From an uncultured virus (IMG/VR IMGVR_UViG_2651870323_000004) (Duplodnaviria; Heunggongvirae; Uroviricota; Caudoviricetes), in IMG/VR virus record IMGVR_UViG_2651870323_000004: a stretch of 20,000 bases of DNA; one strand, written 5' to 3'. The stretch's first letter is position 1, and the number at the start of each line of letters is the position of its first letter. Shown here in pieces: positions 523-17,105 of this stretch. The notes beneath the pieces are model-generated. The model was not told the DNA's origin, did not search any database, and saw only the letters and a list, made by a program, of their open reading frames with translations. A program made the position numbers and the translations under genes.

Positions 523-628
523 CTTGCTTCCCCCTGAGTTTTCGTGCGCGGGAACTGTATCAGACCCCTATCGACGGGCTGCGTGCCAAGCCTGCCAGCC
601 TTCCAGGGTTCACTTCAGAGGTGTGTCT

Positions 629-3600
629 ATGTCCCAGGATTTGCTCGCGATGGCGCGAGGTGATGGCGATGCTGCGGCCGGCGGCGGCTCCGACCTTTTC
701 GAGATGGCCGGCTTCAGGCCCCAGCCCAAGAAGCCCGCAGAGCGCACCTGGGGCGAGGCAGCGACCGATACCGTGGTGCAGCTGGCCGAGGGCGTGAACA
801 ACATCGCCGGGGCTGTGCCCAACCTGTTCGCGCCGCAGTCCGGGGTTGCGTCCTTCTTCCGGGACAATGCCGACCACTGGCGCGGGGAGCAGAGCGAGGC
901 CCTGCGCCGCAAGGTCGCCGACGCGGACGCCCAGATCGCGCAGGCGAACCAGGATTCCATCGTGGACCAGGCCGTGGCCGCCGCGAAGGCCTACAGCAGC
1001 GATCCGGCGCTGGCGGCGCGGTTCGTCACCACCAACCTGCCCAGCATGCTCCCGGGCGTGGCCGCGGCCAAGGCGGCGCAGGTCGCGCGTCTCGCGGGCG
1101 GCGCCAGCGCGGCCGTCGCGGCGGGCACGGCCACCACGGCGGCGGGCGTGACCAATGCCGTGCTCAATGCTGGTGGAGCCCGGGGCGAGGCCTTCGAGGA
1201 CATCCGCGACGCGCTCGTGAAGAAGGGCCATAGCCGCGAGGAGGCGGAGCGCATGGCGCTTGAGCGCTCGCGCATTCCGGCCGCCGTTGGCGCGGCCACC
1301 GGCTTCCTGTCCGGGAAGATCGGGCTTGAGCACGCCGTGGTGGGCGGCGGCGGCGCCCGTGGCGGGCTGGCGGCCGGGGCGCGCTCGGTGGCGGCGGAGT
1401 TGCTGGGCGAGCAGGCGGAGGAGGTGCTGCCCCAGGTCGCGACGAACTACCAGGCCAGCGACATCGACCAGCGGCCGCTATCCCGGAACGTAGGCCGCAC
1501 AGCCGTGGAAACGGCCATCGGTTCGGCGCCGGGCGCGGGCGTGTCGGGCGCTATGACCGCGCTGCGCCGCGGTGATGCCGCCGCTGCGAAGACGGAAGAG
1601 GGCACGCCACCAGCAGAGGCGGGCACGCCTGCGGAAGACATGCTCCCCGACTCGCTGCCGGACCAGCCGGCGCGCCGCTCGGGCCCGGCGGCTGACGCTG
1701 CCGACACGGCCGCGGCTGTCACGCGGCTGGCGGAGCTGGAGGTCATCGACGGCAGCGTGGGCCTGAGCGAAGAGCAGAAGGTCGAACGGGCGGTGCTGGC
1801 CGAGCGCGTGGAGCGTGCCGCCGCGCGAGAGGAGGAGCTGGAGGCCATCGGCGAGACGCCCGAGGAAGCGGCCGGTGCTGCGGCACCGCGGCCCGAAGCT
1901 GCGCCCGCGGCGGAAGCAGCCCAGCCCGGAGATGCCAGCGCAGCGGGAGCTTCCCAGGATGGCAGCCAGCTGCAGCAGGAGCTGCGGGCTGTAGCCCAGC
2001 GATCGAGCGGCGACACGCGGCGCAACGCGGTGGAGCTGCTGGCCCGACTGGAGGGCGGCGGTATGCCGGCCCATGTGCAACGTTTCGTGGAGCGCGAGGC
2101 CGCCGAGCTGGTGGCCACTGCGCAGGCCGCGCCGGCCGAGGCTGCTGGTGCTGCGCCGGGCGCTGCTGCGGCTCCGACCGCCCCGGATCGGCTGACCCCA
2201 CAGGAACGCCAGGAATTCGAGCGCGCCTACCGCCGCCCGGTAGCCGACCCGCTGGGCGAGCTGCAGGACCGCGTGCGCGCTGGCTCGGCCTACACCCAGG
2301 CCGGCGACGTGCAGCAGCTGCGCGATCAGTTGGAAGACGCCTGGCTCGAGCTGAACGTGGCGACCGAGACGCAACAGCCCGCGGCGGCGCCCGCGCAGAT
2401 CGACGGCGAGGCGATCCACCGCGTGGACGCCCAGCTGCGCACCCGGCGCATCCGCGACGCCCTGCAGAACCTGCTGGACGAGGACGTGGGCAACACGGTG
2501 CAGATCGTGGGCCGGCTCGATGGCGCGCTGGAGAAGATCGGCGAGCCGGGGCTGGATGACGGCGAGCGCCAGGCCGTGCGCCGCGTGGCGGACGCCTACT
2601 TCGGCTTTCGCGGGGCTCGCGAGCGCTCGCCCCTGCCCAAGCCCGTGGAGCGGGCCGAGGACTGGGGCGCGGACAACAGCAGCATGGAAGCGCTCATCCA
2701 GGAACGCGGGGCGCCGCGTGCGCGCAGCCGGGACCGGTCGGGGTATGCGCCTGCTGCCGAAAGTGCCCGATCGACTGCCGCCGCGCCGGCGGTGGACGCC
2801 TTCGATCCTGGCGCAGTTCGCGCCAAGACCTGGCCGCAGTTCGTGGCCGAACGCGGCGAGAACGTGGCGCGGCTGCGCCGGGGCTCGCCCGCGTGGGATC
2901 GCCTGCAGAACGAGTGGGCCGCCGTGAAGACGAAGCGCGCCGGCACGAACCCCGAGGGCACTGGCGCCGTGGGCGCGGCTACCCCCGAGATCCAGAACCG
3001 CGACCGGGCCCGACCCGCCAGCGTGGTGCAGATGCAGGGCATGGCCCAGAGCCCCGACTACATGCGCCTGGGTCCGTCGCGCAGCCCCGAGACGGGTGCG
3101 CCCATGGTGTTCGCCGTGGGCGACCAGGTGCACGCCGCGCACGCGATCGGCCGGGGCGACACGGCGGTGATGAGCGACGGCCAGCGCGTGCCGTTCCAGT
3201 ACGCGGTCATGGAAGCCGGCGACGTGCAGCCGTCCAACTTCGCCGACGGCGGGGTGAACCCGCTCTTCGACGCTGCACACCCGGGAACGGTGAAGGCGCT
3301 GAACAACGGGCGCACCGCGGGGCTGCGCGCGGCATACGAGCGCGGCACGGCCGACAGCTACCGGCAGGAGCTGATGGCCGACAGCGCCATGCACGGCATC
3401 GACCCGCAGGTGATCGCCGGCATGCGCGCGCCCATGCTGGTGCGCCTCTACTCGGAGCGCGACAACCAGGCCAACATGGGCGCCAAGAGCCAGAGCCAGG
3501 CCCTGGGGCTGTCGGCCGCCGAGCAGGCCGCCACGGACGCCGCGCTGCTGGATACCGGCGTGCTCGACGTGCTCGAGGCGGGCGACCTGGCCGGCGCCGC

Positions 3601-6600
3601 GAACCGCGATTTCGCACGGGCGTTCGTCGGCAAGCTGCAGGCCGAGGGCCAGGACGTGGCCGGCATGCTCGATGCCGGCGGCGCGCTCTCGCCCGCAGGC
3701 GTGGTGCGGCTGCAGGCTGCCCTCGTGCACAGGGCCTACAGCGATGGCGATCTGGTCGAATCCATGTTCGGCAGCACGGACAACGACATCCGCGCCATCG
3801 GCGAGGCACTGAAGGACGTGGCGGGCGAGTGGGCGAATCTGCGCCAGGCGGCTGCCGCTGGCGCCGTGAACCCACAGGTGGACGTGACGGGCAACCTGCT
3901 TCAGGCCATCCGGCTGGTGCAGAAGGCGCGGCGCGAGCGCGCATCCCTCTACGACGCGATCAACCAGGTGGACATGGTGACGGGCGACGTGCCCGACCCC
4001 ATGACCGTGGGCGTGCTGCGCATGCTCTATTCCGGCCAGTACCTGACGCGGGCCGTGGGCCGGGACCGGCTGGCCGACTCCCTGCGCGAATACATGGCCG
4101 CGGCCTTGGCGACGCGCGCGGGCGGTGATATGTTCGGCGAGCAGGTCGGCCCTGACGCCATCCTTTCCGCGTTGAGCGGCCAACCAACCACCCAGACCAC
4201 CAATGCAGCAAGCCCCCAACCTTCCGGACAATCCGCACCCGCAGCCCCGCAAGGCGAGCGAGGAGCCCCTGGCCGCGACCCTGCTGGCCGCGGTGCTGAT
4301 GAGCCAGGGCAGCAAGCACGGCGACCGGAACCAGATCGAGCAGGGCCGCGCCCTGATGAAGATGGCGGACGCGGCGAAGGGCAAGATGCCCAAGATCCCC
4401 GCGGACAGCCGGATGGGCAAGGCGATCGCGGAGCTGCAGAAGACGGCCGTGGCGCAGTAGCGCCAGACCTCGAACTTTCCAGCTACACCCCACGGGAAGT
4501 CACAGCGCGCGAGGACGCGCAGCAGGAGTCCGCCCAGGCCCGGGCGAAAGCCGACGCGAAGGCTGATGCCGACGCGCGCGCCGAGCGCGAGCGCCGCGAG
4601 GTATCCGCCCGGATGGAGGCCAGCGCCGAGAACTTCGAGCTGGGCGAGGATGCGGACGACGCCCTGAGCGGGCAGCGCCCCATGTTCAGCCGCGCAGCCG
4701 CGCCCGAGAGCGAGGCGTTCAAGAAGTGGTTCGGGGACAGCAAGGTGACGGAGAGCGGCAAGCCGGGTGGCCGCCCGCTCGTGATGTACCGCGGATCGCC
4801 CAACGAGAACGCGGCCCCGTCCCGGCCCGGGGCCCTTATCTTCCTGTCGCCAGACCCTGCGTTTGCCGAGCACTACGCGGCCGGCGGTGCCACCTATCCG
4901 CTGTACGTCAAGGCTGAACGGCCCTTCGACGCTTCCCGTGGGGAAGGCCTCGCGCTGTGGCGCAAGTACGCCGAGGAGACGGGCGCGGCATCGTGGGCCA
5001 CCTCGGGGACGGAGCGCGGAGCGCTGCCGGTCTGGCAGCAGGAGCCGGAACTGCGAAAGTGGCTGGACCGTGCTGGTGTTCAGTACGACGGGATCTGGTT
5101 TGCCGAGTCGAACGGTGGGGCATCGCTCGCGGTGCTGGCACAGGCTCAGGTCAAGTCGGCCACTGGAAACATCGGCACGTTCGACCCGTCGAACCCGGAC
5201 ATCCGCTTCAGCTTCGCCGGCAGGAACGCACGCAGCGCCGACCTGGGCGAGCTGGAGCGCGCCGAGGCCATGGCGCGCAGCGGCATGTCCAGCGCCGTCA
5301 TCCAGCAGGAAACCGGCTGGCACCGCGGCGTGGATGGCCGCTGGCGCTTCGAGATCAGCGATGACACCGCCGAATTCCGCCGGGCCGAGACGCGGCCGGA
5401 GGATCTCGTGGAGGTGGAGCGCCAGGTGCGCGAGGCGGCGACCGTCACCCAGGACGACGAACTGCACACCGCCCAGCTGGACGAAGGCGACGGCGTGCTG
5501 CGGGCCTACAGCACCACCCGAGAGGGGGCGCTGGCCAACCTTGTGGACCGCGTGGCGCGGGCCCGCTTCGGCGTGGAGTTCGACATCGCGAAGGTGAAGG
5601 ATGGACAGGTGGAGGCGCTGACCGACGTGCTGCGGCATCCGGCGCTGTTCGCCGCCTATCCGTTTCTGCGGGGGCTGAAGGTTTACTTCCGCAGGGGGCG
5701 AGACGCCCGCGAGTTCGGCTCCTACGACGAGACCCACCGGGCCGTCACGCTGAACGCGGATCGCGCTCCAGGAGAGGTGCTGTCCACGCTGCTGCATGAA
5801 CTCCAGCACGCGATCCAGTACCGTGAAGGCTTCGCGCTGGGCGGCAACATGGACGCCGACTTCACGAGCAGCGTGCGCAAGACCCTGCGCGAGATGGCCG
5901 AGGGCGAAGCGCGGGCGGTGGAGGCGTGGAAGGCGAAGCACCCGGACTTGATGGAGAACGCTGAGAAGGCGGCCGCCGTGGTGCGCGATGCCCTCATGTA
6001 CGAATCCATGGAGCGGCTGCTGTCCTACTCGGAGCGCGACAAGCCCAGCGGCGTGTTCCGGCTCATCCGCAACGAGATGCAGTGGATCTACAACACGACG
6101 CACTGGCTTGACCCGGTGGCGGTCGAGCTGCAGCGGCGGTTCTACGGGATGCCCAAGAGCGGCGCAAAGCGCAACGCCTACATCCGGGACATGGCCTTCG
6201 ATGCGCAGAAGTGGCTGCGAAGCACCATCGCGCCTGAGAACCTGGCAGCGTTCAAGGCCGACGAGCGCACGATGAAAGGGATGATCGGCGCGCTGCGCCG
6301 GCACGCCGACAAGGCGCGCGCCGCGCTGGAGCCCCTGCGAGAGCAGGAGGGCCGGGCCCGGGTAGCCGAGGCCCTGGAACGGAAGTTCGAGTTCGGATCG
6401 CCCTACGACATCTACCGCTCCCTCGCCGGTGAGGTAGAAGCGCGCACCACGCAGGCACGGCAGGGGCTCACGGAGGCAGAACGCCGTGCACGGCCCGTGC
6501 AGGCCGACATGGACGTGTCGCCGGCCGAGGCCATCGTGGTGGTGGGCGGCCACGAAATGCGCCTGCCGGACGTGCAGCAGGATCGCGGCGCGCCCGGGCC

Positions 6601-9600
6601 GGCCGATGACTTCGACGTGGACGCGTTCCTGCGCACGATGCAGGAGGCCCCGGCCGTGCCCGACGAGGCGAAGGCCCAGGCCGTGGCCCGCACGGAATCC
6701 GCCGCGGCTGCGATCCGCTCCGCGTGGGCGAACGGCCCCGAGGTGGTCGTGGCGTTCGACATGGCCGACCCGAAGGTGCCGCAGCAGGTGCGCGATGCCG
6801 ACCTGAGCCAGCGCAGCCGCGGCGCCGGGGGCTCGCCGGAGGGGTTCTACTTCGGCGGGAAGGTGTACCTGCTGGCCGAGCAGTTGCCGCGCGACCAAGA
6901 CGTGGCCCGCGTGCTCATGCATGAGGCGCTAGGCCACCACGGGCTCGCCGGGGTGTTCGGCTCGGGGCTCGATGCGGTGCTGCAGCAGCTCGTCCAGGCG
7001 CGGCCCGCCGAGGTGCGACGCAAGGCGGCGGAGTACGGTCTGGACTACGGCGACCGGGCCCAGCGGATGCAGGCGGCCGAGGAGGTGCTGGCCGAGATGG
7101 CGCAGGCCCGTCCGGAGCTGGGCTTCGTGCAGCGCGCGGTGGCCGCCGTGCGCAGCTGGGCGCGGGCGCACATCCCGGGCTTCGCCGACTTGCGGATGAC
7201 GGACGCCGAGATCGTCCGGGACTTCATCCTGCCGGCCCGGGGCTGGGTCGAGCGCGGGCGCCAGGCAGACGCAGCGCCGGCAGCCGCTGGCGGCGCGCCC
7301 GCCCTGGCCTTCAGCCTGCCAGCTGACGCGCTGGCCCAGGCCCGGGCGAAGTGGGCCGGGCTGGTCGATCAGTTCGTCCGTGGCGGGCTGGACGAAACGA
7401 AGACCTACGAGGTGCTGCCATCGTCCACGGCGGTGATGAAGATGTTGGGGCTGCCGGATCTGCCCGCGCACGCCGGTGTGCACGCCATGGACGCGCTCTA
7501 CAACCATGGCGTGAAGCCGTCGCAGATGAAGCAGATCCTGGACGAGCTGGCGAACCCGCGCATGGTCATGGTTTGGAACAAGGGCAGCCGCGGCGACGCG
7601 AGCCTGAATTTCGTCACGTCGATGAGCAACCCGCAGGGTCAGCCGTTCGTGATCGCCATCAAGCCCAACCGGGGCTCGGTGAAGGGGCGCTTCCACTGGG
7701 TGGCCACCGTCACGGAGAAGCAGCCGCGCGCGATCCTGGACATGGTGAGGGAAGGGGGGGCAATGTACGCTGGCGAGGGTGCCATCGCGGGAATCTCCGA
7801 GGCGGAGATGCGGGAAGCGTTGCGCTTCGCCAAAGAAAAACGAGGCAAGGAAGCCAGAGGACTGATGCAAGCAATTGGCACCAGTTATAGCTTACCGAAC
7901 CTCGTCCAGCGCGTATTGTACGCAAAGGATCTGGAAGCGTTCAAGGGGGAGCAGGCGGGCCCGGCAATGTTCAGCCGTGCGCCGGCCGGTGCCGCACAGG
8001 CAGCGCAGCCGGCGCAGGGGCTGCTGGCCCGCCTGCAGGACCGCGTGCGCCAGCTGACCAGCCCCGAGGCGGTGGACAGCTGGCTCTACAACTGGCAGGA
8101 CAAGTTCATCGACCTGAAGCGCATCCAGGACCAGATCAAGGCTCTGAACGGCACCGTCAGCGAGACGAACGACGCCTACCGCGGCGAGGAGCTGTACCAC
8201 AAGCGCGTGGCGAAGCGCACGGCCAACTTCCTGCGCGACGAGGTGCGGCCGCTGCTGGCCGCCATGAACGACGCGAAGGTGGGCATGGAGGAATTCGAGC
8301 GCTTCCTGCACGCGCGGCACGCTCCGGAGGCGAACCGCGTGCTGGCCGAGCGCAACCCGAGTAAGCAGGAGCTGGACCAGAAGCGCGCCGACGCCGCCAA
8401 GACCGTGGCGGACCTGCGCCGGCAGTTGCAGCACGCCCGGGCGTCCGGCTCGGTCATCAGCGGCATCCAGCGTTCGCTGGGGCTCGCCATGGCCGAGGCT
8501 GACCGCTGGAACAGCGCCGAAGCGTTCAAGGGCACGGAGGAGGACCGCCTGTCCCTGTCCGGCATGAGCGACGCCGAGGCCAAGAACGTCATGGGGGGCT
8601 ACAGCCCGGAGCAGCGCAAGGTGATGGACGCCTTGGCCACCCGGGTGGATCGGATGAACAACATCACGCTGCAGACGCTCGAGCAGTACGGCCTGATGGA
8701 TCGCCTGTCGATCGAGGCCTGGCGCAAGACCTACCAGCACTACGTCCCGCTGCACCGCGACGAGGCCCGGCCGGACAGCAAGGCTCATCCGATCGGGCAG
8801 GGCTTTTCGACGAAGGGCGACGCATCGAAGCGGCGCACCGGCTCCAACGAGAAGGTGACGAACATCCTGAGCCACCTGGTGATGCAGCGCGAGGCGGCGC
8901 TGACCCGCGGCGAGAAGAACAACGTGATGAAGCGCCTCTACGTGCTCGCGGCGCAGAACCCCGACGAGAGCCTGTGGTCCCTGGAGCTGCCCAAGAAAAA
9001 GGCCATCGACCCGGATACGGGGCTGGTGCGCACCATGCCGGACATCGGGGCGCGCCTGCGCGACAACGTGCTGACGCTGCGCATCGGGGGCAAGGACAAG
9101 CACATCATCTTCAACGAGCGCAACGAGCGGGCGGCCCGCCTGGCGCTCGCCATGAAGAACCTGGACGCCACGGAACTGGACCGCTTTACCCGCACGATGG
9201 GGCACCTCACGCGATGGTTCGCGGCGGTAAACACCCAGTACAACCCGATTTTCGGCGTGCTTAACCTGGCGCGCGACGTGCAGGGTTCGCTGCTGCAGCT
9301 GTCGTCCACCCCGTTGGCGGGCCGGCAGCGCGAGGTGTTCAAGAACATCCGCAGCAACATGCTTGACATCTACCGGGATCTCCGGCGAGAGCGCCGCGAA
9401 AGTGGGGCGGGGCAGGGGCCGTGGGCCCGGCTCTGGGAGCAGCTGCAGCTGGACGGCGGCACTACTGGCTATCGCGACCTCTACACCAAGCCCGAGGACC
9501 GCGCGGCGGCCCTGCGCAAGGCGCTCGAGCGGCAGGGCGAGGGTGGCGCGAAGGCCATGGTGCGCGGCGTGGGGGAGTGGCTGTCCGACTTCAATGAGAC

Positions 9601-10834
9601 GCTGGAGGCCTCCACGCGCCTGGCGACTTACAAGGCTGCGCTGGACGCCGGCCAGTCGCGCGAGGCCGCGGCCAGCCTTGCCAAGAACATCACGGTGAAC
9701 TTCAACCGGAAAGGGCGGAACACGTCCGTGGTGGGCAGCTACTACGCGTTCCTGAACGCCGCCATCCAGGGCAACGTGCGCATGCTGGAAACCCTGGCCG
9801 GGCCCGCCGGGCGGAAGGTCATGGCCGGCGGGGTCGCCCTGGGCATGCTGTCGGGGCTGGCGGGCGCGCTCATCATGGGCGGCGGCGGAGCCGACGACGA
9901 GTGGAAGAAGATCCCCGACTTCGTGAAGGAGCGCAGCATCATCATCCCGCTGTCGCGTCAGGACTACGTGGCGATCCCCATGCCGCTGGGGTTCCACGTC
10001 TTCCCGAACATCGGCCGCAAGCTGGTGGAGTTCGGCATGCATGACGATCCGACGAAGAGCCGCGCCGGTCACCTGGCGGACATGGCCATGATCGCCCTGA
10101 ACGCCTATAACCCGCTCGGCGGGGCCGACAACATCATGCAGATGCTGGCGCCCACGCCCTTCGATCCGGTGGTGGCGCTGATGGAGAACAAGGACTGGAC
10201 CGGCCGGCAGATCTACAAGGAGCAGCGCAGCGGGCTCGATCCGAAGCCCGGGCACGCCATGGGCAAGGATTCGGTGACGCCTCCCGCGCGGTGGGTGGCC
10301 CGGCTCATCAACGATGCCACCGGCGGCAACGAATGGCAGCCCGGGAAGTGGAGCCCCAACCCGGACGCGCTGGAGTACCTGTTCGGGCAGTTCACCGGAG
10401 GCGTGGGCCGCGAGCTGACCAAGGCCGGCAACATGGTGACGGCCGCCGTGACGGGCGAGGAACTGGCGCCGCATCAGATCACCCTGGCGGGGCGGTTTTA
10501 CGGCAACACCCGCGGCGTGAACGGCCAGAGCACGTCCTACTACGAGAACCTGAAGCGGGTGAACACCAGCATGGCCGAGGCCAGGGGGCGCGTGGCGAGA
10601 GGTGAGGAGGCCGAGGCCGTGCTGCTGGACGTGCCGCTGGCCCGCGTGGACGGGGCGGCCAGCGCGCTGGATAAGCGCGTGTCCGACCTGGTGAAGATGC
10701 GGCGGCAGATCCAGGCCGGCAGCGACCCGAACAAGCGCGAGCTCGTGAAGGAGGTGAATGCCGAAATCGAGCGCAGCATGTACCTGCTCAACAAGGCCGT
10801 GGAGGATGTGCTGGCCGAGCAACGCGGCCGGTGA
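629..10834 (+). CDS. Giant phage polyvalent protein (~3401 aa; LPD38 family, probably virion-injected)
   Basis: Uninterrupted ORF with high GC3. Start placed at ATG 629 after GAGGTG. Recognised motifs: ddrB-like ParB (QNRDR, QYAVMEA, NNGRTAGLRAAY; ~2984-3450); ART-PolyVal-like (FKKWFGDSKV..PLVMYRG..YDG..QVKSATGNIGTFDPSNPDIRFS; ~4715-5212); LPD23 (ETGWHRGVDGRWRFEISDD; from ~5213); zincin HELQH (5795) with distal GEVEAR (6428); second zincin HEALGH (6920); MuF-C-like (MLGLPDLP..HGV..ELANP; ~7400-7770); LPD38 (IPDFVKERSIIIP..IPMPLG..NKDWTGRQI..LFGQFTGG; ~9890-10430). Confidence 0.88.
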   Translation: MSQDLLAMARGDGDAAAGGGSDLFEMAGFRPQPKKPAERTWGEAATDTVVQLAEGVNNIAGAVPNLFAPQSGVASFFRDNADHWRGEQSEALRRKVADADAQIAQANQDSIVDQAVAAAKAYSSDPALAARFVTTNLPSMLPGVAAAKAAQVARLAGGASAAVAAGTATTAAGVTNAVLNAGGARGEAFEDIRDALVKKGHSREEAERMALERSRIPAAVGAATGFLSGKIGLEHAVVGGGGARGGLAAGARSVAAELLGEQAEEVLPQVATNYQASDIDQRPLSRNVGRTAVETAIGSAPGAGVSGAMTALRRGDAAAAKTEEGTPPAEAGTPAEDMLPDSLPDQPARRSGPAADAADTAAAVTRLAELEVIDGSVGLSEEQKVERAVLAERVERAAAREEELEAIGETPEEAAGAAAPRPEAAPAAEAAQPGDASAAGASQDGSQLQQELRAVAQRSSGDTRRNAVELLARLEGGGMPAHVQRFVEREAAELVATAQAAPAEAAGAAPGAAAAPTAPDRLTPQERQEFERAYRRPVADPLGELQDRVRAGSAYTQAGDVQQLRDQLEDAWLELNVATETQQPAAAPAQIDGEAIHRVDAQLRTRRIRDALQNLLDEDVGNTVQIVGRLDGALEKIGEPGLDDGERQAVRRVADAYFGFRGARERSPLPKPVERAEDWGADNSSMEALIQERGAPRARSRDRSGYAPAAESARSTAAAPAVDAFDPGAVRAKTWPQFVAERGENVARLRRGSPAWDRLQNEWAAVKTKRAGTNPEGTGAVGAATPEIQNRDRARPASVVQMQGMAQSPDYMRLGPSRSPETGAPMVFAVGDQVHAAHAIGRGDTAVMSDGQRVPFQYAVMEAGDVQPSNFADGGVNPLFDAAHPGTVKALNNGRTAGLRAAYERGTADSYRQELMADSAMHGIDPQVIAGMRAPMLVRLYSERDNQANMGAKSQSQALGLSAAEQAATDAALLDTGVLDVLEAGDLAGAANRDFARAFVGKLQAEGQDVAGMLDAGGALSPAGVVRLQAALVHRAYSDGDLVESMFGSTDNDIRAIGEALKDVAGEWANLRQAAAAGAVNPQVDVTGNLLQAIRLVQKARRERASLYDAINQVDMVTGDVPDPMTVGVLRMLYSGQYLTRAVGRDRLADSLREYMAAALATRAGGDMFGEQVGPDAILSALSGQPTTQTTNAASPQPSGQSAPAAPQGERGAPGRDPAGRGADEPGQQARRPEPDRAGPRPDEDGGRGEGQDAQDPRGQPDGQGDRGAAEDGRGAVAPDLELSSYTPREVTAREDAQQESAQARAKADAKADADARAERERREVSARMEASAENFELGEDADDALSGQRPMFSRAAAPESEAFKKWFGDSKVTESGKPGGRPLVMYRGSPNENAAPSRPGALIFLSPDPAFAEHYAAGGATYPLYVKAERPFDASRGEGLALWRKYAEETGAASWATSGTERGALPVWQQEPELRKWLDRAGVQYDGIWFAESNGGASLAVLAQAQVKSATGNIGTFDPSNPDIRFSFAGRNARSADLGELERAEAMARSGMSSAVIQQETGWHRGVDGRWRFEISDDTAEFRRAETRPEDLVEVERQVREAATVTQDDELHTAQLDEGDGVLRAYSTTREGALANLVDRVARARFGVEFDIAKVKDGQVEALTDVLRHPALFAAYPFLRGLKVYFRRGRDAREFGSYDETHRAVTLNADRAPGEVLSTLLHELQHAIQYREGFALGGNMDADFTSSVRKTLREMAEGEARAVEAWKAKHPDLMENAEKAAAVVRDALMYESMERLLSYSERDKPSGVFRLIRNEMQWIYNTTHWLDPVAVELQRRFYGMPKSGAKRNAYIRDMAFDAQKWLRSTIAPENLAAFKADERTMKGMIGALRRHADKARAALEPLREQEGRARVAEALERKFEFGSPYDIYRSLAGEVEARTTQARQGLTEAERRARPVQADMDVSPAEAIVVVGGHEMRLPDVQQDRGAPGPADDFDVDAFLRTMQEAPAVPDEAKAQAVARTESAAAAIRSAWANGPEVVVAFDMADPKVPQQVRDADLSQRSRGAGGSPEGFYFGGKVYLLAEQLPRDQDVARVLMHEALGHHGLAGVFGSGLDAVLQQLVQARPAEVRRKAAEYGLDYGDRAQRMQAAEEVLAEMAQARPELGFVQRAVAAVRSWARAHIPGFADLRMTDAEIVRDFILPARGWVERGRQADAAPAAAGGAPALAFSLPADALAQARAKWAGLVDQFVRGGLDETKTYEVLPSSTAVMKMLGLPDLPAHAGVHAMDALYNHGVKPSQMKQILDELANPRMVMVWNKGSRGDASLNFVTSMSNPQGQPFVIAIKPNRGSVKGRFHWVATVTEKQPRAILDMVREGGAMYAGEGAIAGISEAEMREALRFAKEKRGKEARGLMQAIGTSYSLPNLVQRVLYAKDLEAFKGEQAGPAMFSRAPAGAAQAAQPAQGLLARLQDRVRQLTSPEAVDSWLYNWQDKFIDLKRIQDQIKALNGTVSETNDAYRGEELYHKRVAKRTANFLRDEVRPLLAAMNDAKVGMEEFERFLHARHAPEANRVLAERNPSKQELDQKRADAAKTVADLRRQLQHARASGSVISGIQRSLGLAMAEADRWNSAEAFKGTEEDRLSLSGMSDAEAKNVMGGYSPEQRKVMDALATRVDRMNNITLQTLEQYGLMDRLSIEAWRKTYQHYVPLHRDEARPDSKAHPIGQGFSTKGDASKRRTGSNEKVTNILSHLVMQREAALTRGEKNNVMKRLYVLAAQNPDESLWSLELPKKKAIDPDTGLVRTMPDIGARLRDNVLTLRIGGKDKHIIFNERNERAARLALAMKNLDATELDRFTRTMGHLTRWFAAVNTQYNPIFGVLNLARDVQGSLLQLSSTPLAGRQREVFKNIRSNMLDIYRDLRRERRESGAGQGPWARLWEQLQLDGGTTGYRDLYTKPEDRAAALRKALERQGEGGAKAMVRGVGEWLSDFNETLEASTRLATYKAALDAGQSREAAASLAKNITVNFNRKGRNTSVVGSYYAFLNAAIQGNVRMLETLAGPAGRKVMAGGVALGMLSGLAGALIMGGGGADDEWKKIPDFVKERSIIIPLSRQDYVAIPMPLGFHVFPNIGRKLVEFGMHDDPTKSRAGHLADMAMIALNAYNPLGGADNIMQMLAPTPFDPVVALMENKDWTGRQIYKEQRSGLDPKPGHAMGKDSVTPPARWVARLINDATGGNEWQPGKWSPNPDALEYLFGQFTGGVGRELTKAGNMVTAAVTGEELAPHQITLAGRFYGNTRGVNGQSTSYYENLKRVNTSMAEARGRVARGEEAEAVLLDVPLARVDGAASALDKRVSDLVKMRRQIQAGSDPNKRELVKEVNAEIERSMYLLNKAVEDVLAEQRGR
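4203..4460 (+). CDS. Overprinted 85-aa ORF nested in the +1 frame of the giant gene; function unknown
   Basis: By hand count, 82 of 85 codons end in G/C, while over half of the host-frame codons in the same stretch end in A/T. The product looks helical (PLAATLLAAVLMSQG..ALMKMADAAK). Confidence 0.7.
   Translation: MQQAPNLPDNPHPQPRKASEEPLAATLLAAVLMSQGSKHGDRNQIEQGRALMKMADAAKGKMPKIPADSRMGKAIAELQKTAVAQ
7832..7908 (-). ncRNA. Candidate antisense small RNA: long imperfect hairpin ending in a U-tract
   Basis: Minus-strand pairings ACGAGG/CCUCGU, GGuAAGCUA/UGGCUUCC and ACUGGUGC/GCAUCAGU, then UUUUCUUU. Two pairs are G-U on the minus strand but A-C mismatches on the plus strand. A promoter-like element lies directly upstream. 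Confidence 0.5.
7915..7944 (-). promoter_or_regulatory. Sigma70-like antisense promoter inside the giant gene
   Basis: TTGAAC (7944-7939), 18-nt spacer, TACAAT (7920-7915), in a locally AT-rich patch of a high-GC gene. Confidence 0.5.
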
Positions 10835-12121: not shown

Positions 12122-12172
12122 AGCGTACCCAGGCGTAGCCCTATCCCTCTAGGAGCTACGCTGCGGTACGCT
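12122..12172. repeat. Long imperfect inverted repeat next to the att site
   Basis: AGCGTACC-cag-GCGTAGC-CCT ... AGG-a-GCTACGC-tgc-GGTACGCT. Confidence 0.7.
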
Positions 12173-12503
12173 AGGATTCGGGGTCGCTAGGGTTCGAATC
12201 CCTCCGTTTCCGCCAATCAGGAAAAGCTGCCAGCATGGCCTCAAGGCCATCGGCGGCTTTTTTTTCGTCCTCATGTTCGGACATGGCTAAGTCCTCCGCC
12301 ATGGCCGCGACGAACGCGTGCGCTGGGTCTTCACCCAGGATTGCGCGGAGCTTGCCCCGGACACGCCAGTTCGCAGGCCTTTTCCCCTGTTTCATTTGGA
12401 TCAATGTCGGCCCCGTGGTGTCGAGCATGGCCGCCAATTTGCGTTGGCTGCCGGCTGCAGTTGATGCTCGCTCGATCAGGTCGGAGAGTTCTTCGAGGGT
12501 CAT
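12171..12503 (-). CDS. Inovirus repressor (XRE/Cro-like HTH), 110 aa
   Basis: GSQRKLAAMLDTTGPTLIQMKQGKRP resembles an HTH; gene is divergent from the replication operon; start moved to ATG 12503; C-terminal WRKRRDSNP is the antisense reading of the tRNA fragment. Confidence 0.8.
   Translation of the reverse strand: MTLEELSDLIERASTAAGSQRKLAAMLDTTGPTLIQMKQGKRPANWRVRGKLRAILGEDPAHAFVAAMAEDLAMSEHEDEKKAADGLEAMLAAFPDWRKRRDSNPSDPES
12189..12215 (+). repeat. att site: 27-bp 3' fragment of a tRNA (probably tRNA-Ser); not an intact tRNA
   Basis: AGGGTTCGAATCCCTCCGTTTCCGCCA is a T-arm, 3' acceptor strand, discriminator G and CCA. No matching 5' acceptor strand (GGAAACG), D arm or anticodon arm upstream. 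Confidence 0.85.
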
Positions 12504-12508
12504 GGTGG

Positions 12509-12571
12509 TTGCAAATTGCAATAGGTAAGGTTACATTCCGGTTGCAATCTGCATCCGGTAGCGGATTGCTA
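12509..12571. promoter_or_regulatory. Rightward sigma70 promoter with three putative repressor operators
   Basis: TTGCAA (12509-14), 17-nt spacer, TACATT (12532-37). 13-bp pseudo-palindromes TTGCAAATTGCAA (12509), TTGCAATCTGCAT (12542) and TAGCGGATTGCTA (12559). Confidence 0.7.
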
Positions 12572-12587
12572 ATTTTAAGCAGCCGCC

Positions 12588-13127
12588 ATGCACCACCAAA
12601 TCACCCCCGGCGCCGTCGTCCTGACCGCCGACCAAATCGAGCTCACAGTCCGCGCCCTGGAGGGCAACGTAGCCGCACTGCAGGCCGCCGACGGCTCCTG
12701 GTACGGCTACCGCCACGTCTCCAGCCTGACCCTGGTTTGCCCACCCCTGCCACCAACGGCACCGGCTCAAAGCTTGGCGGCTGCGGCCGGTGCCGGGCAG
12801 GGGGCGGGCATTCACCTGTCGGCTCTTATGTCTTGCATTGGCACTGCAGCTTCGGGCATTGCGTCCGACGGCACCAGGACCCAACGGAAGCCAGGTGGCG
12901 CTTCTCGCGATGGCGTCGCCATTGCACCAAGTGGCCGCTGCGTTGGGTACCTGATGGTGCTCAAGGCTGCTGTCATGCCGTTTTTGATCGCTGCGTACAG
13001 CACCCAATACGTCAGCATTAATCCAGCTATTGCAGCGGCAAGCGGCAACAGCAATCCGAAGGCAAGTAACCCCATTTTTATCCCTCCCCAAAAAGGGGAA
13101 CATGGTAATGGCTGGGGTGAAGCATGA
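12588..13127 (+). CDS. First gene of the inovirus rightward operon; hypothetical
   Basis: The first ~50 codons have high GC3 and look protein-like. The rest crosses a hairpin and overlaps an antisense gene. The stop overlaps the next ATG (ATGA). Confidence 0.5.
   Translation: MHHQITPGAVVLTADQIELTVRALEGNVAALQAADGSWYGYRHVSSLTLVCPPLPPTAPAQSLAAAAGAGQGAGIHLSALMSCIGTAASGIASDGTRTQRKPGGASRDGVAIAPSGRCVGYLMVLKAAVMPFLIAAYSTQYVSINPAIAAASGNSNPKASNPIFIPPQKGEHGNGWGEA
12739..12809. repeat. GC-rich long hairpin
   Basis: GCCCACCCCTGCC..GGCACCGGC ... GCCGGTGCC..GGCAGGGGGCGGGC. Confidence 0.65.
12812..13075 (-). CDS. Small single-pass membrane protein, 87 aa (inovirus accessory gene)
   Basis: RBS GGAGG before ATG 13075; MGLLAFGLLLPLAAAIAGLMLTYWVLYAAIKNG has a hydrophobic N-terminus; lower GC. 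Confidence 0.7.
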   Translation of the reverse strand: MGLLAFGLLLPLAAAIAGLMLTYWVLYAAIKNGMTAALSTIRYPTQRPLGAMATPSREAPPGFRWVLVPSDAMPEAAVPMQDIRADR

Positions 13128-13594
13128 GGCTCGTCGCCAAGCACCACCAGGTTGGCTACCAGACCCCGGGAGAGCGGCCAGGCTGCCGCAACTGCGCGCA
13201 CTTCGAGGTGACGCGCCATGACTCGCCCATCATCGCCCCGCGCACGGCCTGCACGCTGCACCAGCTCGAAGTGACCAGCGGCGGCATCTGCAATAGCCAC
13301 AAGCTGCAGCGCAAGCCCGGCGAGGCCCAGCTCGCGTTCCTGGCCCGTCAGCGCGATCTGCTGGAGAGCCAGGCGCAGGACCTGGAGCCGCGCCTGGTCG
13401 ATGACCGCGTGTTCCCCGCTGTGGGGGAGATGTACGAAGGCAAGCCGATGACGGTTGCCAAGCATCGCCGCCTGATGGTGGAGCAGTTGATCACCAACGA
13501 GGAAGCCTCTGGCGATCCTGATCTGCTGCGCGCCGCAGCGTTCCGCCGCCGCGCCAATGGCATGCCTCCCCGTCCTGGGGATCGTCGCGCATGA
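13124..13594 (+). CDS. Hypothetical Cys/His-rich protein, 156 aa (possible Zn binding)
   Basis: CRNCAHF..CTLH..CNSH; ATGA-coupled at both ends. Confidence 0.75.
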   Translation: MRLVAKHHQVGYQTPGERPGCRNCAHFEVTRHDSPIIAPRTACTLHQLEVTSGGICNSHKLQRKPGEAQLAFLARQRDLLESQAQDLEPRLVDDRVFPAVGEMYEGKPMTVAKHRRLMVEQLITNEEASGDPDLLRAAAFRRRANGMPPRPGDRRA

Positions 13595-13803
13595 GCACCG
13601 CACCCATGGCCGGCTCGGCCCTTATCCACATGCCCAAGAGCTACGAGATTGCATGCCCGCCGGGCATGCTGGCCCACGGCCACCGCATCAAGCGCTTCAC
13701 GTCCCTGCAGGCCTTCGAAGGCTACGTCGCACAGCTGCGCAAGAGCGGCTGCACTGTCCGCTGGGACACGCCTTTTACCGCCACCGTGGAGGCCACCCGA
13801 TGA
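13591..13803 (+). CDS. Hypothetical protein, 70 aa
   Basis: ATGA-coupled to the upstream gene and to rep; high GC3. Confidence 0.7.
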   Translation: MSTAPMAGSALIHMPKSYEIACPPGMLAHGHRIKRFTSLQAFEGYVAQLRKSGCTVRWDTPFTATVEATR

Positions 13804-14825
13804 GCGGCCGCATGGCGGCGCGCGGAGGGGCCCCGCGCAGCGGGGAGGCGCTGCGCGCCGCCCCGTCCCCTAGTGCTGTAACACTAGGGGAAACCTCCAA
13901 GCAGCGCGCGAAGGTCGATTGGTTGACCGCGACGTGGAAGCCCGAGCCCGACGAACACGTCGTGGCGACGGTTCTGGACCTGCTCCATGGCTTCGGGCTC
14001 AAGGTGGAGGCCGAGGCTGGCCGTGGCCATTTCGGTTTCGCCGAGGGAGCCCGCCTGTACGTCCGCCTGGACGATGGCGCACGCCACCAGGTGGCGCTCC
14101 TCGACTGGGGCGGTGAGCGCATGCGTGGCCGTGCGCGCCTGGACCTCTCCGGCACTGCCTGCAGCCGCATCAGCGACTGGCAGGGCATGCAGGAGTGGCT
14201 GGGCCGCCAGTGGGAAACGACGATCACGCGCGTTGACTTGGCCGTCGATTGCCTCAATGGCGAGTTCACCGTCGAGGACGCCCGGGCCTGGATGGAGGCC
14301 GGCGAGTTCACCGCCGGCGAGGGCCGCCCGCCGCGCCACAGCACACCCGGCGACTGGCTGTCACCCGAACCGTTCTACGGCCGCACGCTGGAGATTGGCC
14401 GCCGCGAGAACGGAAAGATGCTCCGCGCCTACGAAAAGGGCCTCCAGCTCGCACCAGGTAGCGGCGACAAGTGGACGCGCTTCGAGGTCGAAATCCGCAA
14501 CAAGGATCGCGACGTGCCGCTCGACGTGCTCACCCGCTGTGATGAGTACTTCGTCGGCGCCTACGAGTGCCTGCAGCGCCTGCTGCCTGCCGCTGGCGAG
14601 CGCATCGCCACCCACCAGAAGGAAGGCGAGCTCAGCCTCGAAACGATGGTCCACCACGCCAGCGTCGGCTACGGAAAGCTCGTGCACGTCATGCGCGGCC
14701 ACGTGCCCGCTGACCAAATCCTCGACTTATTTGACCGGCCAGGCGTCCCAAGACGACTGGAAAAGGCCACCCTGGCCGGATTCATCGCGGCGTCGTCTGT
14801 CGCATCACAGGAGAAAAGGCCATGA
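13800..14825 (+). CDS. Rolling-circle replication initiator, Rep_trans family
   Basis: Motifs VDWL, ITRVDLAVD, GRTLEIG..KMLRAYEKG, WTRFEVE; start ATG 13800 after GGAGG. Confidence 0.92.
   Translation: MSGRMAARGGAPRSGEALRAAPSPSAVTLGETSKQRAKVDWLTATWKPEPDEHVVATVLDLLHGFGLKVEAEAGRGHFGFAEGARLYVRLDDGARHQVALLDWGGERMRGRARLDLSGTACSRISDWQGMQEWLGRQWETTITRVDLAVDCLNGEFTVEDARAWMEAGEFTAGEGRPPRHSTPGDWLSPEPFYGRTLEIGRRENGKMLRAYEKGLQLAPGSGDKWTRFEVEIRNKDRDVPLDVLTRCDEYFVGAYECLQRLLPAAGERIATHQKEGELSLETMVHHASVGYGKLVHVMRGHVPADQILDLFDRPGVPRRLEKATLAGFIAASSVASQEKRP
13867..13890 (+). other. Putative plus-strand origin (nick-site) hairpin within the 5' end of rep
   Basis: Perfect stem CCCCTAGTG-ctgtaa-CACTAGGGG, preceded by a second GC hairpin (~13814-13862). 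Rep_trans origins commonly lie at or in the 5' part of rep. Confidence 0.6.
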
Positions 14826-15130
14826 AAGCACATGTGATCGGTATCGAGATTTCCGAGGGCGTCAGCAAGAAGACAGGGCAGCCCTATGCCATCGGCAAGC
14901 TGTTCTGCGCGCTCCCCATCGTGGGGAAGGGGGCACGCGGCCTCATGGGCAGTGAGTACCAATGCGAACCTGTGGTGCTGCGCAAGCTCGATGGCATCGA
15001 GCTCCCCGTCGTCTGCGAGCTCGAAATGCAGGACGTTATGCGCTACGGCCAACGCCGCCAGGAGATCGTGTCCGTGGTGCCCGTCAAGGCTGCTGCGCAG
15101 CAGCCTGCAGCCGCTCCCCGTGCCGCCTGA
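14822..15130 (+). CDS. ssDNA-binding protein (pV-like), 102 aa
   Basis: Directly follows rep (ATGA); GVSKKTGQPYAI beta-hairpin motif and size are typical of inovirus SSBs. Confidence 0.85.
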   Translation: MKAHVIGIEISEGVSKKTGQPYAIGKLFCALPIVGKGARGLMGSEYQCEPVVLRKLDGIELPVVCELEMQDVMRYGQRRQEIVSVVPVKAAAQQPAAAPRAA

Positions 15131-15197
15131 GTGCAGCCGGTTGCCCTCCCGCCCGGGAGGGCCTCCGAGTGCATTTGCACGGCAGAGGGAGGTACCC

Positions 15198-15344
15198 ATG
15201 GATGATCAGGCGGAATGCCCGCATTGCGACCACAAAGGCCCGCTGGATGAATTTTTCGATGGCGACGACAGCGCGGGCGGCGAGGACTGGCTCGTCTGCC
15301 CTGACTGCGGCTCTGGCGGCATGTTGGACGACTTCACCGGCTGA
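15198..15344 (+). CDS. Acidic zinc-ribbon microprotein, 48 aa
   Basis: RBS GGAGGT; CPHC..CPDC. Confidence 0.7.
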   Translation: MDDQAECPHCDHKGPLDEFFDGDDSAGGEDWLVCPDCGSGGMLDDFTG

Positions 15345-15346
15345 CC

Positions 15347-15559
15347 ATGCACATCCTCGTTTGCAACGTCGCACAGGCGCCGTGCCCGCCCGATCAGCAA
15401 GCCTTGCTGAGCTTCACCCAGGCGGAGGACTTCGCCGCCCTGGGCCTCACACCCGAGGTGGTGGCTGCGGCATACGTGTTTGGCGCCGGCAGCGTGGTCC
15501 TGTGGTGGTTCCTCGGCTACTGCATCAGCCTCGCGATCAAGCTGATTTCCAAGGCCTGA
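15347..15559 (+). CDS. Putative minor coat protein (pVII/pIX-like), 70 aa
   Basis: C-terminal TM segment with basic tail; lies between SSB and major coat. Confidence 0.7.
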   Translation: MHILVCNVAQAPCPPDQQALLSFTQAEDFAALGLTPEVVAAAYVFGAGSVVLWWFLGYCISLAIKLISKA

Positions 15560-15644
15560 CCAATGCAACTATCAGCCTCGCGTGCGGGGTTGATGGGTGC
15601 AAACCGGATTCCCCGGAACACCGATTTTTTTCTGGAGTTTGAAA

Positions 15645-15779
15645 ATGGACGCAATCTTTGCAGCAGTGGATTTCAAGACCGTCGCCGCGGCCGTGGGTGT
15701 CATCGGTGTCGCCGTCATCGGCATCCACATGGCCTTCAAGGGCATCGACCTGGGCAAGCGTGGCGTGAAAAAGGCCTGA
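15645..15779 (+). CDS. Major coat protein (pVIII-like), 44 aa, no signal peptide
   Basis: RBS GGAG; MDAIFAAVDFKTVAAAVGVIGVAVIGIHMAFKGIDLGKRGVKKA has an acidic N-terminus, TM helix and basic C-terminus. Confidence 0.88.
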   Translation: MDAIFAAVDFKTVAAAVGVIGVAVIGIHMAFKGIDLGKRGVKKA

Positions 15780-15789
15780 GGGTAGGCCC

Positions 15790-15888
15790 ATGCTGATAGG
15801 GGCGCTGCTCGCTCTCTTCCTGGCCCTGGTGGCCGTGATTGGGGCGGTCAGCGCCCTTGTTTTTGCTCTGCAGGTGCGCAATGCTTAG
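15790..15888 (+). CDS. Putative minor coat protein, 32 aa
   Basis: MLIGALLALFLALVAVIGAVSALVFALQVRNA, a single TM segment between pVIII and pIII; hand-translated, below the ORF track cutoff. Confidence 0.7.
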   Translation: MLIGALLALFLALVAVIGAVSALVFALQVRNA

Positions 15889-16730
15889 ATCGTCAAAGTT
15901 CTTGTCTCTCCTGGTCGTGCTCCTGGCCGGTGTTGGCACGTCAAACGCCGGTGTGCGGTACCAATATGGCGACGCCTGGTACCCCAGTGCGACCGCTGCT
16001 TGTCAGGCCCACATAACGAAGAACGCATCTTCGAATCCGGGCGTTTCGTCGTCGGTCTCTGCGGTGCAGGAGTTCGCTACCACTGCGGTTTGCACTATCT
16101 CCTCCTCCAGCGCAAATGGATCGTGGACCGATCGTTTGACCGTCGGCCGCGAAGAGACCGCGTGCACAGCAGGTGAGTCAACTGGCGAGCTCGACTACCC
16201 CGGTTCTCGCGGCTCGTTCAGGACTTGTGTCCAGGGCTGTCTGGCGGACATGAGCGCCGTTACTCCCGTGCTTGAGTGCTCAGGCACTGGCACCAGCGCG
16301 TGCACCTACAAGACCCGCATGTCCGGCAAGCTGACCGGCGCATCGTGCAGCTCCGCATCTGGCGATCCGCCCACCACCAACCCGCCACCATGCCCGTCCG
16401 GCATGTCCGGTGGCTACGTCAACGGCGTTGAGGCCTGCGTCCCCAACTCGGGGAGCGGTGGCAGCACTGGCGGTGGCACTGGCGGCGGTACCGGGTCCGG
16501 CGACGGCACAGGCGGCGGCACGGGCGGCGGCACGGGCGGCGGCACTGGCGGCGGCACTGGCGGTGGTACTGGTTCCGGTGACGGGTCAGGCGGTGGCACT
16601 GGTGGTAGTACAGGTGGCGGCACCGGGTCCGGTGATGGCACTGGGGGCGGTACTGGCGGCGGTACTGGCGGCGGTACTGGCGGCGGTACTGGCGGCGGCA
16701 CTGGCGGAGGCACTGGCGGAGGCACTGGCG
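15881..16730 (+). CDS. Adsorption protein (pIII-like), reliable N-terminal part only
   Basis: Signal peptide MLRSSKFLSLLVVLLAGVGTSNA, Cys-rich domain, Pro-rich turn, then a GGGT/GSGDG linker. Sequence degrades after ~16730 and no C-terminal anchor is present. Confidence 0.85.
16453..16730 (+). repeat. 12-bp tandem repeats encoding the Gly-Gly-Gly-Thr linker
   Basis: GGCGGCGGYACN-like units interrupted three times by GSGDG. Confidence 0.9.
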
Positions 16731-16904
16731 GGGGGGCGGGGGGGGGGGCGGGCGGGGGGGCGGGCGCGGGGGGCGGGGGGGCGGCTGGGCCCCCCCCCCC
16801 ATGGGGGGGGAGGTGCTGGGGGGGGGGCGCGTCGCTCCCGGGCGGGCCTGGGGGGCCCGCCTCCCACCGGCCGCCCCCTGTTCGGGGCGGCGCGCCTGGG
16901 GCCT
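16731..16904. other. Corrupted G/C homopolymer tract; probable sequencing or assembly junction
   Basis: Long G and C runs with A/T nearly lost, between two truncated convergent genes. Confidence 0.8.
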
Positions 16905-17105
16905 GCCTGCGGCGGCGGTGGCGGGCGTCCAGTTGGCATCGCGCCAGCACAGTTCGTTCGTGCCGTTCTTCCACACCAGCTCGCCGGTGCCGTTTTGCCA
17001 GTTGTCGATCACCTTGCCGCCGTCAGCGGCCTTGACTTGGGCACCAGCCGAGGTAGCCAGCACGGCAGAGGCCAACAACATCGCCACTTTGTTCAGTTTC
17101 TTCAT
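16905..17105 (-). CDS. ompA: Outer membrane protein A, first 67 codons only
   Basis: MKKLNKVAMLLASAVLATSAGAQ..DNWQNGTGELVWKNGTNELCWRDANWTPATAAAG; RBS AGGAG; divergent from gyrA as in Burkholderiales. The C-terminal domain is missing. Confidence 0.92.

Follow-up and report, generated by a model that had tools for sequence, protein, structure and literature searches.

A conserved small-RNA gene overprinted antisense to the coding sequence behind predicted MuF-C ribonuclease domains of phage polyvalent proteins

In type III toxin-antitoxin systems (ToxIN, CptIN, TenpIN), the antitoxin is encoded by RNA repeats that lie upstream of the toxin gene, on the same strand, and are co-transcribed with it. 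In type I pairs, such as RatA/txpA and SR4/bsrG, a convergent antisense RNA blocks the translation of a small and usually hydrophobic toxin, and in pairs of the RatA/txpA type this RNA covers the 3' end of the toxin gene. For the MuF polymorphic toxins of temperate phages, immunity is provided by a small downstream open reading frame (ORF) in 89.4% of 191 genes (Jamet 2017 PMC5576092), and a ribonuclease (RNase) activity has been predicted for the PBECR and MuF-C domains of phage polyvalent proteins (Iyer 2017 PMC5512222); what is attributed to published sources here and below refers to their accessible parts. Here we analyse a stretch of 20,000 nucleotides from an uncultured virus of the Caudoviricetes (IMG/VR record IMGVR_UViG_2651870323_000004), hereafter the window, in which the gene of a giant polyvalent protein carries on its minus strand, directly after a MuF-C domain, a promoter, a long hairpin and a U-tract (together the cassette). 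Comparison with other MuF-C loci identifies the cassette as a real, conserved and overprinted small-RNA gene coupled to MuF-C domains of predicted RNase activity: the RNA gene accompanies the domain, is under nucleotide-level constraint and is transcribed in one homologue, that of the Stx (Shiga toxin) phage Sp5.

The locus resembles several of these systems in part. Like type III systems and AbiF-RCd22 (PMC12373285), it combines a predicted endoribonuclease with an adjacent structured non-coding RNA, occurs on phages and plasmids, and carries extra RNA copies at some loci. Unlike type III systems, it has its RNA downstream and antisense, with a convergent promoter of its own and usually within the reading frame; this RNA is single-copy in the window and forms one long hairpin instead of pseudoknot repeats, and the toxin fold would be BECR rather than MazF-like or HEPN. 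Neither a known type III toxin family (the domain belongs to MuF_C) nor an Rfam antitoxin model was recognised, and an Rfam search of the window and of 10 related loci found nothing at the cassette. Like type I antitoxins, the RNA is cis-encoded and complementary to the toxin mRNA, and in stand-alone plasmid genes it converges on the 3' end; unlike in type I pairs, an enzyme domain would be the toxin, either in a product of some 160 aa or within a 3401-aa protein, 7 kb from the start codon, and the loop sequence of the RNA is conserved across lineages. The domain shares family, His and S/T pattern and architecture with the PBECR/MuF-C domains described from polyvalent proteins (PMC5512222); the words 'noncoding' and 'small RNA' do not occur in the accessible main text of that paper, nor does its section 19, as far as accessible, name an inhibitor. 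With the MuF polymorphic toxins (PMC5576092) it has in common a virion-associated putative toxin against which the lysogen would need self-protection, but the domain described here sits inside a protein, where it cannot be followed by an ORF, and the RNA gene takes that place.

An earlier note, made from the letters alone, had described a minus-strand promoter, a three-segment hairpin and a U-tract at this site, and all three are indeed present: 18 nt separate TTGAAC (7944-7939) from TACAAT (7920-7915), and the hairpin (7907-7838) lies within the MuF-C gene, in frame downstream of the domain, with the RNA almost wholly paired and offering no free variable guide. The claim that the minus strand folds better also holds, since over 7832-7908 it reaches -30.6 kcal/mol (z -5.43; none of 200 shuffles as good), as against -23.5 kcal/mol (z -3.58; 1 of 200 shuffles as good) for the plus strand. 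When a 70-nt segment was slid along each strand of the ORF (1026 segments), the lowest z (-4.17) fell at the cassette, although the lead is modest (the next segment has -3.94, and 11 of the 1026 lie below -3). Codon adaptation at 7829-7903 is the lowest of the ORF, except for the stretch around its uncertain start, and the GC content at third codon positions (GC3) is 0.48 there as against 0.88. When the region was recoded synonymously with uniform codons, 0.2% of 2000 versions matched the fold of the cassette, whereas 34.5% did so when the GC-rich codons of the ORF itself were used. Taken by itself, the promoter is no more frequent than expected by chance (2 sites in the window, 1.6 +/- 1.3 in shuffles), and a stock terminator scan of the window did not list the long interrupted hairpin; a combined rule of promoter, closed hairpin and U-tract finds the cassette as its sole match on both strands of the 20-kb window. 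The coordinates of the features are collected in Table 1.

Table 1. Features of the polyvalent protein gene and of the antisense cassette, in positions of the window
Feature	Position	Strand	Remarks
Giant phage polyvalent protein gene	524..10834	+	ddrB-ParB, ART-PolyVal, LPD23, metallopeptidase-like DUF6782, MuF_C, LPD38
MuF-C/PBECR domain, with N-terminal helix and clade-specific C-terminal helix	7319..7849	+	Pfam core 7502-7723
His2328 (YNHGV), predicted catalytic histidine	7505..7507	+	Alignment; active-site pattern of PMC5512222
Ser2355-Arg2356, loop residues tracking the RNA loop type	7586..7591	+	Only diagnostic columns, 11 versus 6 proteins
Thr2395 (VATVT), predicted S/T of strand 4	7706..7708	+	Alignment; active-site pattern of PMC5512222
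U-tract UUUUUCUUU	7832..7840	-	Sense strand encodes Lys-Glu-Lys as AAA GAA AAA; invariant in 7 of 7
Predicted ~76-nt small RNA	7832..7907	-	+1 expected at 7908 or 7907, as in Sp5, where the mapped start is 6 nt behind the -10 box
Apical loop CAAUUGCUU, 9 nt	7869..7877	-	CAAUUG in common with the CAAUUG(G/A)AG loop of distant relatives
-10 box TACAAT, written by the rare codons GTA TTG	7915..7920	-	Invariant in 8 of 8 aligned sequences
-35 box TTGAAC	7939..7944	-	TTGAAn in 6 of the other 7 aligned close relatives, missing from L015

The polyvalent gene encodes a protein of 3401-3436 aa; it probably starts at the ATG at 629, which gives 3401 aa, the length of the database protein P0002. Its nearest named relatives lie in Acidovorax and Comamonas genomes. 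The MuF-C identity proposed in the earlier note is upheld by a match of residues 2327-2400 to the PF18819 (MuF_C) profile at 29.8 bits, above the curated cut-off of 27.6 (E 6.9e-07). His2328 and Thr2395 align with conserved columns, the histidine falling within the region of the N-terminal helix and the S/T in strand 4. An AlphaFold2 model of the domain, built on an alignment of 34 sequences, reached a predicted local distance difference test (pLDDT) score of 92.9, and its closest solved folds were ParE/RelE/YoeB (Z 5.0-5.3), CdiA-CT (Z 4.8) and colicin D (Z 4.7). At Z 5.3, the best of these matches has a root-mean-square deviation (rmsd) of 3.4 over 76 residues, colicin D one of 3.4 over 82, and toxins of the RelE/ParE/colicin D/CdiA type make up nearly all of the best 34 structural matches. 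As far as a model allows, these matches are consistent with the BECR fold, though they are middling. Foldseek returned no significant match for either of two domain models (none at E <= 0.001 for the model with pLDDT 92.9). The other, earlier model, built on 8 sequences, was of low quality (pLDDT 61.4) and was set aside; with so shallow an alignment, its uncertainty over the RNA-coded residues 180-224 carries little weight. From its sequence we infer that the MuF-C domain of the window is an RNase.

Among close relatives, with domains 70-100% identical, repeated scans yielded only 7 distinct sequences and RNAs, and tblastn searches with the window domain and with protein P0060 against named phages found no match. 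These relatives retain the promoter box, the stems and the U-tract at synonymous sites. Where a degenerate amino acid is invariant, the same codon recurs at 11 of 20 such positions within the RNA region, compared with 21 of 90 within the domain (Fisher p 0.012), and identical A/T-ending codons occur at 6 of the 20 and at none of the 90 (Fisher p 1.8e-5), p values that are overstated because the sequences are related. The structure of the window RNA is 93.7% paired across the set, which 1 of 500 shuffles equals, and two of its pairs are changed on both sides. The loops fall into two types, CAAUUGCUU in three of the seven RNAs and CAUGACU/CAUUACU in the other four. Residues 2355-2356 of the protein read S/I-R with the RNA type QAIG and R-G with the type AVMA; they are the only columns that separate the loop types (11 versus 6 proteins, 17 of 19 being assignable), and the N-terminal 75 residues do not separate them. 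At the level of sequence, this tracking hints at a coupling between protein and RNA.

Two observations on relatives stand apart from this comparison. In G017:C4, near 2585896 (L011, L100), a close relative's gene ends in mid-domain at the edge of a prophage remnant, and both the catalytic C-terminal half and the RNA are absent from the 10.5 kb examined. In the proteins P0022-P0039, at ~30-38% identity, the His region is often replaced (e.g. by YANIRL), with what would be the K-rich and xLYKSD shadow of the RNA kept at constant spacing.

Whether homologues keep a promoter and structure, which the earlier note had named as a check, was looked for, and the cassette occurs at the same position behind close as well as very distant MuF-C domains. 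The same antisense layout is found in the second prophage of G001, in G186 and G859, in the Stx phages 933W and phi24B, in Pasteurella phage Pmp11, and on plasmids of Pseudomonas and Aeromonas. When MuF-C domains were chosen by protein alone, a cassette lay directly 3' and antisense to 18 of 26 according to a rule, in 7 of 9 lineages (8 of 9 by eye); elsewhere, the same rule matched 5 times in 36,757 antisense bases, once at a further copy of the RNA, and never in 40,672 sense bases. The eight misses are L031, which has no -35 box, four domains of G859 with an RNA of 138 nt that exceeds the limit of the rule, L050, which by eye is of the 933W type, and two Glaesserella genes. Two plasmid genes that encode a stand-alone domain (156 and 161 aa, each scoring above the MuF_C cut-off) have the RNA beyond their stop codon, and protein constraint is therefore no explanation there; the arrangement of stand-alone gene and RNA is a toxin-antitoxin layout. 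Phage Mu gpF, which is called inactive (PMC5512222), has no His, no antisense promoter and no U-tract, although this is one case only.

Scans with the RNA motif alone landed after a MuF-C domain at 18 of 18 and at 20 of 25 loci, counts that are partly circular where the motif spells GLQLP; the L072 group reads the loop motif in another frame, which is that of the window. The promoter, which is outside the motif patterns, was found within a 40-nt interval at 17 of 19 distinct loci and in 31 of 523 control intervals, and lies further upstream at the remaining two. At L072, L076, L077, L084, L086 and L092, the RNA is preceded by TAnnTTTG, which we take to be the Bacteroidota promoter box, rather than depending on TTG-17-TAnnnT. 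Some loci carry more than one RNA. For example, three promoter-RNA units follow a single domain in L012 (742-817, 1030-1105 and 1319-1394, spaced by 288-289 nt), and L065 has a tandem pair. At 12.8-24.7 kb of G859:C16 (L034-L039) there are five MuF-C domains, four of them in tandem cassettes of ~1.05 kb, and each of these four is followed by TTGACA-N17-TAC(T/C)AT and a closed 138-nt RNA of a different sequence type, so that the array resembles an orphan toxin-immunity array.

The apical loop CAAUUG(G/A)AG is conserved over distant copies in two coding frames and in non-coding DNA, and because it is kept in two frames or none, the GLQLP tail of the domain is probably the translation shadow of the RNA. 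Covariation was assessed for the apical stem, whose outer two pairs have both partners replaced in 7 and 8 of 23 RNAs and whose inner two pairs are partly fixed by the search patterns. In 21 of 24 distant RNAs, the minus strand has the advantage as regards G-U pairs. A possible loop-loop dimer has a computed duplex energy of -4.6 kcal/mol. The window RNA shares the layout, that is, an antisense promoter, hairpin and U-tract after the domain and CAAUUG opening the apical loop; judged by sequence it is a diverged variant of this family, a kinship that rests on position, layout and the shared CAAUUG.

By the same single-hairpin rule, no cassette was found right after any of 12 PBECR1/PBECR2 matches, the sole rule match being a weak AT-rich fold 190 nt away. 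Separately, at 6 of 11 PBECR2/PBECR1 loci (L101-L112) an antisense TTG-N16-18-TAnnnT promoter lies 100-150 nt downstream, as it does in 20 of 267 control windows.

Transcription data are available for the homologue ECs1242 in phage Sp5 of E. coli O157 Sakai, where differential RNA sequencing (dRNA-seq) located an antisense transcription start site at 1301472 with an enrichment of 24.07 (Sy 2020 PMC7547250), the strongest of four starts in that gene. The sequence upstream of this site ends in TTGCGA-N17-TATTTT plus 6 nt, which is the promoter of the cassette, letter for letter. The first 40 nt of the Sp5 cassette RNA are overlapped by the Hfq-crosslinking peak of EcOnc36 (1301433-1301515, minus strand), which was listed from 5 Hfq datasets with no Northern blot (Tree 2014 PMC4104026 Table S2). 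Like the window RNA, EcOnc36 is antisense to the MuF-C tail, here of ECs1242, and has a hairpin with a CAAUUGGAG loop and a U-tract; apart from CAAUUG and the U-tract, the two differ in sequence. DNA near-identical to EcOnc36 is carried by 425 of 5426 complete E. coli genomes. In the accessible part of a review, EcOnc36 is catalogued solely as an Hfq-bound peak, its targets given as unknown and no link made to a MuF-C domain (PMC7873438). ECs1242 itself is essential for infectivity (PMC5155283). Conservation of the cassette together with the Sp5 start site and Hfq peak lends good support to the small RNA of ~75 nt that the earlier note had postulated, and we regard it as very probable that a discrete RNA is made from the cassette of the window.

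As to function, we favour the reading that the RNA is an antitoxin similar to those of type III, which would directly inhibit a virion-delivered BECR RNase, and hold it with about as much confidence as doubt. A constitutive sigma-70 promoter on the antisense strand would give rise to a single-hairpin RNA of ~76 nt that ends at its own intrinsic terminator. This RNA would be the partner of the MuF-C domain that precedes it, binding the enzyme via the apical stem-loop and inhibiting it. In this way the prophage could make and package a toxic RNase within an injected polyvalent protein, lysogens would be shielded from the same enzyme delivered by related phages, and the injected enzyme would be switched off once the phage DNA is transcribed. 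The protein stretch written by the RNA region probably acts as a passive linker. If the RNA is the ligand of a conserved enzyme, it follows that its loop should be conserved, that extra copies should be useful, and that it should be lost where the enzyme is dead.

Its closest competitor is a cis-antisense silencer comparable to type I, in which the RNA would pair with the mRNA downstream of the RNase domain, the double strand would be cleaved and leaky expression in the lysogen avoided; we consider this unlikely, though more credible than the other alternatives. Complementarity is perfect by construction, the convergent RNA of the stand-alone plasmid genes extends over the region of the stop codon, and the sense strand also folds (see above), exposing the palindromic CAAUUG for possible loop kissing. 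However, pairing requires no conserved loop, extra RNA copies lie outside the frame of the domain, and pairing in the middle of a 10-kb ORF could not neutralise a protein delivered with the virion, where the phi24B homologue is abundant and from which it is proposed to be ejected (10.64898/2026.04.10.717836). An antitoxin or decoy would fit better than a silencer, given a loop sequence that persists through different lineages and reading frames.

Alternatively, instead of blocking the RNase, the RNA could license or aim it, as an activator, a cofactor or a mimic of its substrate; a ligand resembling an anticodon stem-loop would be an example. In the distant family, the apical stem has 4 bp and the loop 7 nt, as many as the anticodon loop of a tRNA, UUG occupies the positions of the anticodon, and the tRNases colicin D and CdiA are among the nearest folds. 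Against this, the loop lacks the U that tRNAs carry at position 33 and has 9 nt in the window, the almost fully paired RNA leaves no guide, and expression in a lysogen culture, as seen for Sp5, is hard to reconcile with activation of a nuclease, so that we judge the idea quite improbable. Less credible again is an independent, Hfq-dependent small RNA acting in trans on host or phage mRNAs, whose location would be incidental: the crosslinking of EcOnc36 to Hfq speaks for it, but Hfq generally binds terminator U-tails, and the strict location after MuF-C domains and the lack of an unpaired seed besides the loop speak against it. Least probable of all is that there is no functional RNA but an element that acts at the level of DNA or mRNA (a recombination signal, a pause site or a processing site), its antisense transcription being incidental, for although the window promoter alone is at chance level and modules appear swapped between relatives, promoter, hairpin and U-tract are kept jointly in one orientation, the G-U pairs favour the minus strand and the Sp5 start is strongly enriched.

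Several points weigh against the antitoxin reading and its evidence. Antisense starts are common, and ECs1242 has a second, weaker one; the EcOnc36 peak reaches 43 nt upstream of the start site; and no 3' end for the Sp5 RNA was found in the two published supplementary files searched. The whole of ECs1242 can be expressed from a plasmid (PMC5155283), an observation that does not discriminate, since the clone includes the RNA gene. In the four close relatives with CAUGACU/CAUUACU loops, two pairs beneath the loop are broken, and the covariation of RNA and residues separates only two groups and may reflect plain linkage. A covariance model of 23 distant RNAs, a weak one that held only 4 base pairs, scored the window RNA at E = 2 and over its 3' half only (7833-7870). 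The rule behind the count of 18 of 26 was written only once the sequences had been seen, and two stand-alone Glaesserella genes carry direct repeats in place of the cassette. Finally, RNase activity, binding of RNA to protein, inhibition and its timing are all things that we infer. With regard to the Glaesserella plasmids (L047, L049), the two direct repeats, of ~26 nt, and a symmetric terminator lie over the stop codon and are possibly a second, repeat-type RNA partner.

The window holds further features unconnected with the cassette. An 85-codon ORF (4203-4460, plus strand) is nested in another frame of the giant gene, with a GC3 of 0.97 as against 0.45 in the giant frame; its relatives are 69-100% identical, no PHROG match was found, and it looks like a real overprinted gene. 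A filamentous-phage-like module adjoins the prophage at ~12170-16500, with a Rep_trans initiator (13557-14825, E 1.9e-21), an RstB-like ORF below the cut-off (14822-15130) and, by eye, small coat-like ORFs and a Gly-rich pIII-like ORF. At ~16500-17100, the Gly-rich ORF runs through GC-skewed low-complexity sequence into a reverse-strand 5' end that we take to be OmpA-like, a junction that is possibly a misassembly.

The earlier note had also stated that it knew of no description of such an RNA, which stands for the coupling: no paper pairing MuF-C or PBECR domains with an RNA was found in a literature search beyond whose reach most subscription papers lay, and neither 'antisense' nor 'noncoding' occurs in the accessible part of a 2026 preprint on BECR classification. 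It does not stand for the RNA as such, of which one member was already catalogued, without function, as EcOnc36.

This coupling answers the question of how, for want of an immunity ORF, phages could package an injected protein that has a predicted RNase in its middle, and EcOnc36, an orphan RNA of Stx phages, gains a candidate function that can be tested. It also illustrates how an overprinted RNA gene can cast its shadow as a conserved 'protein motif' (GLQLP, KEK, xLYKxD). More generally, and with somewhat less confidence than in the antitoxin itself, we propose that phages injecting BECR RNases within giant virion proteins hide RNA immunity genes antisense and in frame, and that domain and RNA form a swappable toxin-immunity cassette whose loop variants would represent immunity groups; the RNA would protect the lysogen, exclude the injected RNases of competitors and, as a timer, silence the enzyme minutes into the infection. 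Other PBECR families, in which the domain is likewise followed by antisense promoters, may obey the same principle. If the binding proves true, there would be RNA antitoxins for the BECR fold, of which none was found in the literature searched, and they would open a route to the cloning and characterisation of PBECR enzymes.

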